A stretch of DNA of 64,000 bases from Clostridia bacterium (GTDB lineage Bacteria; Bacillota; Clostridia; Christensenellales; DTU072), in the NCBI GenBank assembly GCA_024685275.1, contig JAIKVY010000246.1, positions 10-64,009 on the forward strand. The letters are read 5' to 3'. The first letter of the stretch is position 1. The number at the start of each line of letters is the position of its first letter. The notes under the pieces are model-generated. The model saw only the letters and a list, made by a program, of their open reading frames with translations, was not told the origin of the DNA and made no database searches. Below are positions 33,801 to 42,800 of this stretch, piece after piece. A program made the position numbers and the translations under genes.

Positions 33801-36800
33801 AAAAGTTAAAGATGTTTTATCTTTAGATCCAAGCGCAACAGGCTTTTCATTGGAAGTAAATGATGCATCACAATTAAAAGAAATACTTGAATACGCTATT
33901 TTATACACATTAACAGATGATTCTAATGCGATAAATGAATATGGTCTTGTTAATGCAGAAGGCAATGATAATGTATATTTAACAAATCAAGAAGAATTAA
34001 TATTAGCAAATGAGTTATATGCAAGATTAAAAGATATAGGAAGACCATTTGAAAATATTTCTGTATTTAAAAACATATATAGCAGCAGCGGAAGTGAATT
34101 TAATACTAGATTAGAGAGAGCAATTTACTTTAACGCTAAAACTATTATAGAAAAAGATAGTAAAGAATACCTAGATAAAGAAGCAGAAGAAGCTGTAATT
34201 AATGACCAAGAATATACATTATTATTAAGAGAATCTGCGGCTTTAGATGTATTTAATATATATCTAGAATTAGTTGGAAATAACGTTGAATTAACATTAA
34301 CAAAAGCACATGATATAGCCGAAGCATCTAATTATGAGTATTTGAGAAACTTAATAGAAGATAATGGTGGCGCAAATATTCAAAGTGTAACAGTTGAGTA
34401 TAATGATTTCTTTACATATGTAAGAGATTTATATACAGATTCATCAATAAAAGATTCCGTTAGAAATATAGTTAATTATGTGTATAACTATGCAGGACTC
34501 ACATTTAATAGATTAACAATTAATTCTGCTGATGTTATAAGCAAATTATATCCAGAATATATTTATCATTATATGGATTCAAAGAAAGAGACTATTTATA
34601 ACGATATAATCGGAATTTTAGGAAAGATTTACAAAAATAACGATGAAACATTTAATATTGATGATGTTGAAGGTATAAAAATTGTTGAATTAATAAATGG
34701 ATTAAGTAGCATAGTTGTAGATTCTAACTATAAAGCATTTACCTCAATGCTTTCAAATCTTGGATTGAAGGAAGATGAAGTAACTGTAGATAATATCTTC
34801 GATATGGTTGCATATATTTATGGTAATAATTATGATGTATTCTCAGGAATAAGCCCACTTAATGATGCCAATAACTATGTAAATGGATTAAAGACAATAA
34901 TGGATTCAATGAGAGATAAATTGAAGGATATATATTTGAATCCAAATAGTAAAGCATCAAGAATTAACAATTATACATATAACAAGATATCAAGAATAGA
35001 GTATTATGATTATGCAATACTTAACCAAGTAGATTATGAAAGAATAGGAAAGTATTCAGCAAGTATAGAAAGTTATGTTTTGAATTTAGTTAATGCATTA
35101 ATTAAAAACACATATGGACTACATGGATTATTTAATGATATCAGTAGTGCAGATGCTGATAAATATGGCGGAGATTTAAATTCTTCTCTAGCTGGAGATT
35201 CTTTAATAGCATATAAAGCATTAAAAGGATTTGTATTCTATTCAGGAAACTTCAACTATTATATTGATAACTACACAAATAATATTAGAAATGTTTTAAA
35301 ACAACAATATTTCGATAACAAGACATTAATGGAATATTTAATTTATGGTGATGAATTGTTAGGCGAACCATATGAAATTGTAGAAACACCAGAAATTGGT
35401 CAAATAGAGAATTATTATGAGAAAAACACGATTAACTCTACATTTGTAAAGACAGAAGATACTGTAATAGATGATGGAAAAACATATTATATTAGTACAG
35501 GAAACAGATTAGCTATAAAATTAGCAAATGATTTTGTTGATTTAGCTACAAATATGATAGAAACAGATAAAACCACAATATCAAATGATTTAGGAATAAA
35601 TGTTGATACTATTAAAAATAGCGGAACAACAATAGAAAAAGCTGCAGCAATGTACAATATTGCAAATAAATATAAAGATTTAAATGATGGAGCAAATGAT
35701 TTCACTCAAGCATTTAAAGATCATTATAAACACAAACCAGCATTAGCTATTGATAACATTTCAGAATACTTAACAGAAAGTATTTGGAAAGAATATTATG
35801 CAAACTTTAATAGTTTATATACAGCAGTAGAAGATGTTCTTAAGATGAAGGAAACTTGCCAAGGTTTCTTAGAAGATGAAAATGTACAATTATCAGATAT
35901 TGAAGAATTTTTAAGTAAGATTAACTATAAAGATTCAGCTAATTTCTTAAATATTTTCATGGAAAAGACAAAACAAAACATCACAGATACATTAGAAACT
36001 GAGATAAAAAATAGCAAATATATATTAGAAGTTGCATTTGATTACATGGATAGTAGTATTATTCAAGCGGGCGAAGTTGCACAAGTTGATATATCTTTAG
36101 CTCTTGATTTATCAAATACTAAACTCCAAGCAGAAAATGAAGTTATTTCTATAGATCCAGTTACTGGAGATAAGACAAGTTCAATTGAAGATATTTTATC
36201 AGATTCAGAAAAAGATGAATTTATTTCATACACAGACTTACAATTATATTTAGCATTTAATGGTTATTTATCTGTTGAATTTGGTGCAGGTGAAACTGAT
36301 CTTGCTGATATTATCAAGTTAGTATTAACGAATATCAATTTATCACAAATAGGTGTATATTTCGATAAATCTCACATAATGCTAGGTAAGATTAATGCAA
36401 GAATCGGATTAGACGTTGATAAGATATTAAAGATTGATGATGATGAAGAGTTAGCAAAAGCTGTTATGGCATTCATTGATATAGAATATCAATTGATTGA
36501 TAATGGAGAATCTAACCAAGAAGTAAGATTTGATCAACAAGTTATTTCGTTATACATTTACGAAGGAAAAGTATATTTAAGAATAGAAATATTTGATGCA
36601 GAAATTTGTTTAGGATTGAATTTAAACTTAGCTAAATTATTATTAAATTTACTTGGAGTTAGAAAAGATGAAGACGAAGTTGTATCACAAAACTTAGCTA
36701 AATTTAATGATGCCATAGCAAAGAAATTTAATGGTAATTATTCAGAAAACATTTTAAGAAAAGTATATAATGCTGCAAAACAAGGAAGCGATGCTAGTGT

Positions 36801-39800: not shown

Positions 39801-42800
39801 AATGTTATATAACGGAAGCTTCTTAATTAGTCCAAAGAGTGAAGCTTTAAGTTCACTTTTAGGTATGGATATTCCTGCATTTGATAATTTTGCTATTTCA
39901 ATGAACTTAGATAATGGAATAAATAATTTAGATCTAAAGGTAAGAATTGATGATTCAAATACACTTGATATAAGTATTCCAGAAAAAGATGGATTATCAT
40001 TATATCTAAACTATGGTGTTGGTGAAGGCGCTGGTGGAATGGATATTAGCTTAGCTAATAAGTTATCTGATTATATTCCAGATTCATTATCAACCTTTGG
40101 TGCTATTAGTGGATTAACCTTTGGCGAACAAGGATTTAATATTGATATTCCTAATTTAATTGATAGTTTATTAAACTTCTTAAGTCTAGAAGGATTAAAT
40201 ATTAACTTAGAATCTAAAGGCGATTATTGGACAAGAAGAACTTCTTATACTAACTATTCTATCTTTAATGCTAGTGCTCCTCAAATGTATGCAGATGAAG
40301 ATAAAGGTTATACTACAAGAGACTGGGAGAAATTTAAGAATTTATTAATTACTATTTATGCTATGGGCGAAATAGGAAGCATAATTAACTTGTTTGTTAG
40401 TGCATATACATTTAACCCACAGAATTTATTTAACATGATTACAGGTATTGCTGGATTAGCTGGCAAGATTAATGATGTATTTAGCAATACAGCAGATTTA
40501 TACAATGGTTTAAATAAAAATATTAGATATCAAAAGCTCCAAAGAAATGCTAGAGGAAGAGGAAATATTAAACTTTATAAAGATACAGCAAATGTATTAA
40601 GTCTTGAAGTTAACATTCCAAATATTTCATCAGCTTCAATTTTACAGGCAGATCTTGTACAATTTGGCTTAATATTAAGAGGAAATTTAGTTGAAAAATT
40701 AGCAGAAGCAGTTGATTCACTTGGATTTGTTGCAAATACTATTTTAGGATTCTTTGAAAATATCAAAGATGTTATTAGTGCTCTTGATGATGGAGAACTT
40801 GATTTAAATAAGATAATTGGATCATTTACTGGAGGAAAAGGATTATATCTAAATGGTGATACAATTGACGCGTTAATAAAATCATTCTCAAAGACTGAGG
40901 ATACATCAAGTTATTACAGCAAGATGTATGGAACAGTTTTAGATTCTAATGGAAATCCAGTAGAGGGAGCAACTGTAACATATACTCATAGCGGAGTTAC
41001 TCATACTACTACGACTAATAATGTTGGAAGATATTACTTTACAGAATTACCTATGACAGGACACTTAGATGAAACTCATGATTTGTCATTAATTCCAGCA
41101 GTTAGAGCTTCATTCTATGCAAAATATAATTTAGGTGGTTTAACAATAGACGACTTAAGTAAAGAGCAATTTATTAGTGGTTTAAAACATGGTATGGCTG
41201 GAAGCGACACTGGTGATATTGGACAAGATAGTGAAGTTACTTATGAAGGTGTTACATACGTATATCATTATTACACATATGGACAAGCAAATTTAGGAAA
41301 TCCAAGAGCTGGTTATTTCTATAAAAAGAGTGATTACGGAACTATTAGTGTAACCAAGAAAGGTTCTACAACAACTGGATTAAATGGTATTTTATTAGAG
41401 CCATCAATAGTTGCTGGTGCTAAACATATTGATAATTTGGTAATAACAACAACGGATTCAGAAGAAGGAACAAGCGATATTATTATCAATGGATATGTAA
41501 TTAATACTACAGGAATGACAGATAGCAGCTTTGAAACTTACGAAAGTGTTGCTAACATAGAAACTAATTATAAAAATAATCTTAATAATAGAATTGGTGG
41601 CGTAAATGTCGTATATAATTTAGGCGAAGCTAATATTAACACAAGCACATCAGCTGAAAACACTGGAAGCTTTGTTTTACATGCAAAAGAATATGGAACA
41701 TTAAGACAAGCTATTAGTGGAAATACAATTTTACATCAATTTGAATTAACTAAAGCAAATTATGTGGATCATCATAATATTATCGTAACGTATAATGATG
41801 CATTTGCTTATTTCTTTGATGATAGTTCAAGAACTGCATATCAAAAACTTGATGAATATATTAGTCAAATAATAGGAACTGATGGAACAGGAGCACTAGC
41901 ACAAGAAAAGAACAATGGAAACGCTTATGAATTTAATGTTTATTTTGGCATGACAATTGTTAATGAGCATTTAATTTCAATAACTGGTAATGTAACGGCA
42001 AAAGATAATGATGAAAAAATATCTATTCCAAACCCAGAAGATTTTGAAATTTGGGTTGCAGTAGCAGAACACAATACATCAGATTATAAATTAATAGGAG
42101 TATGTGATTTCTATGATTTATTACCAGATGATTTCTCTGCAACAATGGATATATATGGAAACTTCTCAATTTCTAGTGAAAAATTAACATTAGAGAATAA
42201 AGATGGATCTATAAGCGGTAAAGATATTAAGGTTAAATTCCGTTCTTCTAAGTATAAGAATTGTGATTATTTATTTACATACAATGATTCAACAAATAAA
42301 TATAACAACACTAAGATTATAACAGCTGACAGCGTAACAAATGTCAGTGGAGAAACGTTTGAAACTGCTTTAAGTATTATATGTAATCATGTGTTTACAT
42401 TAAGAGCAGAAAATTGGACTACTGAATATGAAAACGCATCAGCATTTGCAGCATTAAGATTAAGAATAGGATCAGACCTTGTTGATAAGACATATAAACA
42501 ATCTGCAGATATGATTGATGATGAATTAAAACAAGGAACAGTAGAAATAATCGCTGATGATTATGTATATGTTGAAATATGGTTAAGTTCAGCAGTTATC
42601 AACAATGTAATTTATAAAGTTGATAATTTACTTGGCGGACTTGATAATATGATGGATATTTCTCCAACAGCTACAATTCAGACAAGTACTATTTCTGATG
42701 TAGACACAACAACACAATCAGACTTTAACTTTAGATATTATAAATATACAGAATTAACTACAAAATATGATTCATTATATGAAAACTTCCCAGAATTAAA

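Follow-up and report, generated by a model that had tools for sequence, protein, structure and literature searches.

The window analysed here, a 64,000-nucleotide stretch of Clostridia contig JAIKVY010000246.1, carries a single open reading frame (ORF) of 12,483 amino acids (aa) whose product opens with a lipoprotein signal peptide. Our analysis centres on nucleotides (nt) 36070-40200, which correspond to aa 6764-8140 of this giant lipoprotein. A first-pass annotation, made from the sequence, had proposed that this region consists of four compact, insertion-free modules, and that these build either a rigid beta-rich stalk or a hydrophobic groove of the repeating beta-groove (RBG)/AsmA type. 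By profile comparison the module is a new sequence family without an assignable fold, found in a giant lipoprotein of gut Clostridia that is rare yet conserved. The features of the giant ORF and of the studied region are as follows, with modules numbered along the protein and junctions being the module joints of the first-pass annotation.

15781-53232, + strand: giant ORF of 12,483 aa, a single open frame under translation table 11
15781-15858, + strand: lipoprotein signal peptide and lipobox MKNRKKFLSVFILIVCIVLALCMVAC|S with Cys26, read from the sequence
35944-36654, + strand: module 11, C-terminal part (aa 6722-6958); hidden Markov model (HMM) positions 28-231, independent E-value (i-E) = 6e-15; the terminal hairpin holds junction 36571
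36811-37707, + strand: module 12, 'M2' (aa 7011-7309); HMM positions 8-227, i-E = 3.3e-22; the terminal hairpin holds junction 37636
37708-37875, + strand: M2-M3 linker (aa 7310-7365), acidic and of low complexity; predicted local distance difference test score (pLDDT) <50 at aa 7332-7379 in AlphaFold2 (AF2) model 1
37876-38583, + strand: module 13, 'M3' (aa 7366-7601), compact and without insertions; HMM positions 1-232, i-E = 9.6e-44; junction 38497 lies in the terminal hairpin
38584-38709, + strand: M3-M4 linker (aa 7602-7643; 'SFDKSQNTIDSSNAAGYVSGSISSGEATAIKYP'); pLDDT <50 in both AF2 models
38710-39408, + strand: module 14, 'M4' (aa 7644-7876), compact and without insertions; HMM positions 1-231, i-E = 1.1e-44; pLDDT 70-89; junction 39325 lies in the terminal hairpin
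39448-39750, + strand: helical insert (aa ~7890-7990) separating M4 from M5; AF2 model 1 shows three long helices
39790-40221, + strand: module 15, 'M5', N-terminal two thirds (aa 8004-8147); HMM positions 6-157, i-E = 4.3e-13; the last recognisable module
40927-41055, + strand: CarboxypepD_reg domain, immunoglobulin (Ig)-like (aa 8383-8425); Pfam PF13620, E = 3.9e-9

The product of the giant ORF is, on its predicted features, a bacterial lipoprotein and substrate of Lgt and LspA, having both a signal peptide and a lipobox with an invariant Cys. The lipobox was assigned by reading the sequence rather than with a dedicated predictor such as SignalP, and a canonical lipobox opens every full-length relative (LVGC|S, LLSC|T, LIGC|T, IAAC|S, VVAC|T). 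The signal peptide is the sole strongly hydrophobic segment of the giant lipoprotein, with no other segment of transmembrane grade. The C-terminus reads ...FEVMVRIKKEI, and neither an LPXTG motif nor a hydrophobic tail is present there.

BLASTP of the region against the whole giant lipoprotein returned the self-match only, and single-sequence phmmer gave weak matches only, all of them in the same register. Profiles revealed the repeat. When ortholog sub-alignments were compared with hhalign, M3 (here aa 7291-7577) matched M4 (here aa 7578-7853) with a probability of 97.6% (E = 3e-12, 259 columns), M2 matched M3 end to end with a probability of 80.6% (E = 1e-5, 269 columns) and M4 matched M5 with a probability of 75.7%. 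As a non-circular check, an HMM built from M4 orthologues alone matched M3 at 9.8e-10 and aa 408-546 at 2.2e-7. Moreover, HMMs of single-module orthologues recovered the neighbouring module at ~1e-10 and N-terminal modules at 1e-4 to 1e-7. On iteration, a 232-position module HMM converged on 143 copies in the family, rising to 324 once 15 GTDB loci were added. These comparisons identify the modules of the window protein as homologous but very diverged, in a repeat that is visible to profiles only.

The module HMM places about 15 modules over aa ~100-8150, that is, the N-terminal two thirds of the giant lipoprotein. They lie at aa 117-188 (partial), 350-542, 622-884, 931-1255, 1629-1960 (split) and 2009-2470 (split) in the N-terminal part of the array, at aa 2519-2816, 3461-3662, 3717-3986 and 4018-4290 in its middle, and at aa 6722-6958, 7011-7309, 7366-7601, 7644-7876 and 8004-8147 in the studied region, which begins within module 11 and finishes within module 15. 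The array ends at M5 in relatives too. The studied region is best explained as the best-preserved stretch of an ancient array. Start-to-start periods within it are 355, 278 and 360 aa, and the module spacing of ~280-360 aa given by the first-pass annotation is borne out by this range of 278-360 aa.

All four junctions (aa 6931, 7286, 7573 and 7849) coincide with a recurrent motif of a hairpin and a helix, as in 'IGLYYVEGQLYASLSGLGLF..VDIMSALSGIL'. They mark a real conserved feature but are not module boundaries, since they sit 25-30 aa ahead of the module ends, at profile columns ~195-232. Similarly, freedom from insertions holds for M3 and M4 only. M2 has helical insertions at aa ~6972-7055 and ~7118-7171, and a helical insert of ~100 aa stands between M4 and M5, its helices being residues 991-1087 of AF2 model 1 (pLDDT ~81-92 for residues 1020-1090). 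The linker between M3 and M4 keeps neither its length nor its sequence among orthologues.

The family is rare: of 1.84 billion representative proteins scanned in full with HMMER, only 22 proved to be relatives. Full-length relatives have 7,100-7,800 aa, come from metagenome-assembled genomes (MAGs) of Clostridia/Bacillota and are annotated at NCBI only as hypothetical or 'carboxypeptidase-like regulatory domain-containing' proteins. The giant ORF is collinear with them along its full length, with conservation highest in two blocks (aa ~6770-7910 and aa 1-980). The M4 motif Y[AV][DSN]L[SNA]GLGLF, used in a degenerate search based on the small alignment A4 (alignment A1 held no stretch conserved enough), retrieved the gene from 15 GTDB species, namely uncultured Christensenellaceae, Candidatus Stercoripulliclostridium and gut Clostridia MAGs of chicken, goat, sheep and deer. 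In 15/15 species the frame is open over the whole fetched 20-kb locus, up to 6,900 codons, at guanine-plus-cytosine (GC) contents of 32-57%. Because the frame stays open in 15 species over this range of GC, the giant gene is real and under selection. It is conserved, occurs in a single copy and has an ordinary synteny; in the window, whose GC is ~29%, it is flanked by ordinary Bacillota housekeeping genes (tilS-hpt, CCA/polyA polymerase, Fe-ADH, HtpG and a P-type ATPase). On one metagenome contig, L001 (ENA ERZ16268140 scaffold_1555), gene calling divides the giant homologue into three successive genes of 2,647, 1,214 and 4,573 aa; a frameshift or an error in the assembly is a likelier cause than genuinely separate genes.

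Full-length members hold 15-16 modules each, all inside the first ~4,200 aa of the 7,100-7,800-aa relatives. Position-matched, orthologous modules share 28-43% identity across species and non-orthologous pairs 9-24%, and the paralogous modules within the window protein are 10-23% identical. Since module k of one species is orthologous to module k of another, the array is old, its order and number are fixed, and each position is individually constrained. By this pattern of identities the module array is an old structure and not a recently amplified repeat.

Other searches added no members. A word-indexed homologue search with the region, A1 and A4 found none scoring among 8,000 candidates each, a method that evidently misses these giant proteins given the 22 relatives found by HMMER, and a single-protein scan of GTDB genomes gave no match. 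Literature searches found no description of the giant lipoprotein family. A preprint on giant bacterial genes deals with other Clostridia giants (RCC1, beta-propeller, dockerin), and this family is absent from it.

Two AF2 models were made. Model 1 covers aa 6900-8099, about five modules, and used 17 orthologous segments (mean pLDDT 59, predicted template modelling score (pTM) 0.39). Model 2 covers aa 7360-7885, that is M3 and M4, and used the tandem-pair alignment A3, which consists of in-phase, non-overlapping module pairs from orthologues and paralogues (mean pLDDT 72, pTM 0.53; pLDDT ~90 in the C-terminal half of M3). From the HMM and the models, the module core has 232 positions, with ~12 amphipathic strands and 3 amphipathic helices. 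Both models predict the same plan. The N-terminal half runs from a hairpin and a helix through 3-4 strands to an irregular connector; the C-terminal half has a long strand and a helix, five more strands that include a conserved hairpin (consensus YxDLsGLG), a final helix and then the linker, for which pLDDT is <50 in both models. Three helices per module replace the single one of the first-pass annotation, whose amphipathic strand runs are seen as a period-2 alternation of hydrophobic and non-hydrophobic residues in the strand columns of 241 aligned module copies. In this alignment 37% of columns are >=60% hydrophobic. Strand makes up 39% and helix 24% of model 2, and strands of 13-15 residues, too long for Ig-like sandwiches, are frequent in it. 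We detected neither an internal duplication nor any relationship between the two halves of the module (probability ~1%).

The linkers, 200 of which were measured across the family, are 12-127 aa long (median 41 aa). Pro is enriched 2.2-fold and Ala 1.85-fold, Glu, Asn and Ser are also enriched, and Leu, Ile and Phe are about twofold depleted. They are also Gly-rich, of low complexity and predicted to be disordered. The pTM values of 0.53 for two modules and 0.39 for about five are somewhat above those to be expected of fully independent domains of this size, which suggests that the modelled modules may have some preferred arrangement relative to one another. Mean-field direct coupling analysis of the 241 copies (effective number of sequences, Neff, ~195) gave output dominated by gap and terminal artefacts.

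The window protein reaches 12.5k aa by insertions, including one of ~2,300 aa in module 11, while its module count is about that of the relatives. Module 11 is apparently split: a module-type hairpin and helix stand at aa ~4330-4365, and the C-terminal part resumes at aa ~6701-6722. The intervening ~2,300 aa (window ~28770-35880, aa ~4330-6700) are Tyr-rich and apparently partly helical judging from the sequence alone, and contain no module signal and no Pfam match. At this position relative P0003 also shows a stretch, similar in length, that does not align. In relatives P0004, P0005 and P0012 insertions are found between the halves of M3, by eye small alpha/beta domains, in stretches that start 'YYVLLAGITPEDLEAFNGMIGNY...' and 'YVYYFLYDNADQAMADAYVARFRKCGF...'; insertions of this type are not present in the window protein. 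As the M3 orthologues of these three relatives carry such insertions, the mid-module connector tolerates whole-domain insertions.

Downstream of the array, the C-terminal ~4,300 aa are non-module and of different composition, and are conserved and collinear in the family. CarboxypepD_reg, the only Pfam domain of the giant lipoprotein, marks the onset of this part; a sub-threshold Pfam match to Big_1 falls on the same stretch. Further on, at window ~42877-43206 (aa 9033-9142), there are two moderately hydrophobic stretches, for example 'FPEIILTAVQGLLGLLNLIPYAKFVFIPINFVL', which are less hydrophobic than the signal peptide and could either form a buried core or interact with a membrane. Elsewhere in the window, a second large ORF of 2,430 aa occupies 10-7302 (+ strand) and may begin upstream of the window. 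Its C-terminus resembles parallel beta-helix repeats ('NITSTTLTS...NCSFYRNITD...TNNLFNGSQTAINSG'), and it has no above-threshold Pfam match and no similarity to the giant lipoprotein. At 62197-63072 (+ strand), downstream of the giant ORF, lies an HTH_3 and DUF3990 protein, like regulators of phages and mobile elements, which is unrelated to the module array.

We searched for relationships to known families at the levels of sequence, profile and structure. No Pfam family matched the studied region (hmmscan). AsmA, AsmA_2, TamB (DUF490), DUF3971/YhdP, LmeA (DUF2993) and Chorein_N gave no Pfam match in the whole protein at E <= 0.1 or in 18 family segments at E <= 1, and LolA, LolA_like, LppX_LprAFG, MucB_RseB and DUF4367 likewise gave none in the whole protein or the 18 segments. 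NCBIfam had nothing in the studied region, the first 1,000 aa or the C-terminal part, and sequence and profile searches of the PDB with the region, profile A1 and the C-terminal part found nothing. The module profiles A3 and A4 compared by hhalign with Escherichia coli TamB reached a probability of 0.1-0.3%, with sensitivity limited by the single sequence on the TamB side. The first-pass annotation had itself claimed no sequence-level evidence for homology to AsmA/RBG families.

Foldseek against the PDB listed no RBG, TamB, VPS13 or ATG2 structure among the top 50 hits of either AF2 model, both models being of moderate confidence (pLDDT 59 and 72). The template modelling (TM) score was <= 0.24 for all hits. 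Model 2 had none at E <= 1e-3, and the single one for model 1, TbpB (E = 8e-4), has a TM score of 0.06-0.10 and is meaningless. The hits are generic antiparallel meanders: porins, TbpB, the LolA-superfamily protein NE2245 (3buu), RseB (2v42) and DUF1849 (6ntr). The last three have probabilities of 0.33-0.47 (3buu 0.35, 2v42 0.47), TM scores of 0.23-0.24 and E > 0.01, and are not significant. Foldseek against the viral structures of BFVD found nothing.

Several known systems nevertheless share features with the giant lipoprotein. AsmA-like and RBG proteins (TamB, YhdP and AsmA; VPS13 and ATG2) are also very long and built of many diverged beta-rich units in a fixed order behind an N-terminal membrane anchor; their strands are likewise amphipathic, and a helix and then a disordered loop close each unit. 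They differ in that the anchor is a transmembrane helix there and a lipobox here, and in that the giant lipoprotein, about ten times longer than TamB, is produced by Clostridia without a known outer membrane. The unit differs too. An RBG repeat unit has five beta-strands and then a loop, usually with a helix at its start, whereas the module here has 232 positions with ~12 strands and 3 helices and shows no homology between its halves. Ebh, SasG/Aap, Bap-like proteins and Apilactobacillus Giant1-5 are, like the giant lipoprotein, Bacillota surface proteins of thousands of residues with tandem modules as a likely spacer. Their stalks consist of known Ig-like, FIVAR/GA or E-G5 repeats, often near-identical and variable in copy number, and they carry YSIRK or LPXTG signals. 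The giant lipoprotein is unlike such adhesins: its repeats are 10-23% identical, fixed in number and order and without a Pfam family, and its anchor is an N-terminal lipid. It has neither the sorting signal, nor the known Pfam repeats, nor the near-identical, variable repeats of LPXTG adhesins. The LolA plan comprises 11 strands and three helices, and in element count the unclosed barrels of LolA, LppX and RseB are similar to the module, at 11-12 antiparallel strands and three helices in ~200 aa. LolA-like proteins are single domains and are not known to occur in 15-fold arrays, whereas the giant lipoprotein is a ~15-fold array without a family-level sequence match. Lastly, a polymorphic toxin or contact-dependent inhibition (CDI) protein was considered but dismissed: the C-terminus does not vary but is conserved and collinear among family members, and the searches yielded no toxin domain.

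The reading we favour, to which we would give about an even chance, sees the giant lipoprotein as a fixed-length stalk or scaffold with a lipid anchor, which consists of modules of a new type and displays the C-terminal ~4,300 aa. An N-terminal diacylglyceryl-cysteine would keep the giant lipoprotein in the cytoplasmic membrane, and the chain of modules would form an elongated stalk or scaffold of defined length, perhaps roughly 70-200 nm, which would cross the cell wall and extend beyond it. This estimate takes ~15 modules at 4-6 nm each plus linkers and lies well past the thickness of a Gram-positive wall. The C-terminal ~4,300 residues, comprising the Ig-like CarboxypepD_reg and other domains without assignment, might in this way be presented to the environment, a host surface or a partner cell. 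The stalk is a plausible and the most economical reading, as it fits the lipid anchor at the lipobox, the long chain of ~15 beta-rich modules with flexible linkers, and the distinct, conserved C-terminal part. The rigidity that the first-pass annotation had attributed to it has no support here, and the linkers are of low complexity and predicted to be disordered.

Several points weigh against this reading. Elongation, rigidity and the nature of any hydrophobic face are conjectural, the confidence of the AF2 models is moderate (mean pLDDT 59 and 72), and the C-terminal part has no assigned function. That the hosts are monoderm is our presumption from taxonomy and general knowledge. Moreover, 15 individually conserved, position-specific modules exceed the needs of a plain spacer, which suggests that each does something specific, be it binding, assembly or transport.

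Three other readings were weighed against the lipid-anchored stalk. The modules could instead be beads on a string, discrete unclosed barrels of the LolA/LppX/RseB kind, each plugged by helices and with its own hydrophobic pocket; the giant lipoprotein would then be a multivalent binder or store of hydrophobic ligands, or simply a stable chain of barrels. The ~12 long antiparallel strands and exactly three helices per ~232 aa resemble the LolA plan, the linkers between modules are flexible and disordered, and the least poor Foldseek neighbours by TM score and probability are 3buu, 2v42 and the barrel-like 6ntr, with the porin and TbpB barrels also listed. These hits, at E > 0.01 and TM <= 0.24, are nevertheless at the noise level for antiparallel meanders. 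No LolA-type Pfam family matches, and pTM appears slightly above what independent beads would give. We regard this arrangement as doubtful. An envelope scaffold or coat, in which the giant lipoprotein lies along the cell surface or multimerises in an S-layer-like or capsule-organising fashion and projects no distal effector, is distinctly improbable in our judgement. It would suit a single-copy, conserved gene set among housekeeping genes in the window, a strongly conserved module order and number, and a lipid anchor in place of an LPXTG wall anchor. Pfam and NCBIfam, however, found no SLH, CWB2 or other wall-binding domain in the giant lipoprotein, the family is rare (22 among 1.84 billion representatives), and nothing points to self-assembly.

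The groove of the first-pass annotation was weighed as a bridge-like conduit, in which the strands of successive modules would join into one long curved sheet whose apolar groove moves lipids or other hydrophobic cargo to a host or partner membrane. Such a conduit would be analogous to AsmA/TamB/YhdP and VPS13/ATG2, with homology not being required. In its favour are the strict period-2 hydrophobic alternation of the strand columns over 241 copies, and the three short helices, seemingly not enough to shield the apolar side of a ~12-strand sheet that does not curl. The RBG-like module end, a helix and then a disordered loop, also fits, as do the membrane-anchored N-terminus and pTM values that may hint at ordered packing between modules. 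In addition, diverged modules fixed in number and order are typical of a machine of defined length and not of an adhesin stalk. Against this, there is no sequence link to any AsmA-like or RBG family, no RBG structure is among the top Foldseek hits, and a unit of ~12 strands and 3 helices has no internal 5-strand repeat. Insertions of hundreds to ~2,300 aa break up modules in the window protein, and in the producers, Clostridia, no second membrane is known that could be bridged. An exposed apolar groove of ~80 nm outside the cell would be prone to aggregation, and no lipid-handling partner genes were seen in the window. Sequence, profile, Foldseek and repeat-unit tests thus all leave the RBG/AsmA reading unsupported, yet it is not refuted, the amphipathic strands and the terminal helix-then-disordered loop being compatible with either a groove or a stalk. 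We consider the conduit unlikely. Rather improbable, too, is its fuller form, in which 15-16 position-specific modules make a continuous amphipathic sheet of defined length, an extracellular lipid-anchored hydrophobic conduit of an evolutionary origin independent of AsmA and VPS13, through which small-genome gut Clostridia would exchange lipids or other apolar compounds with host or partner cells.

Giant surface proteins occur commonly among Bacillota. This family stands apart from them in being lipid-anchored, with no recognisable domain over ~8,000 residues, and in consisting there of an old array of very diverged modules, fixed in number and order, that match nothing in Pfam, NCBIfam or the PDB. 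At least 15 species of uncultured, Christensenellales-like gut Clostridia retain an intact gene; this group is linked to host health and hard to culture. If the conduit were true, the giant lipoprotein would be the first bridge-like transfer protein known from monoderms, and its fold would be new for that function. The compact M3 and M4 (window nt 37876-39408) offer the best handle for structure determination; a structure of this pair would define a new domain family and separate a passive stalk from a hydrophobic conduit or binder. The distinction between stalk and conduit bears on how reduced-genome gut bacteria interact with their hosts or partners.

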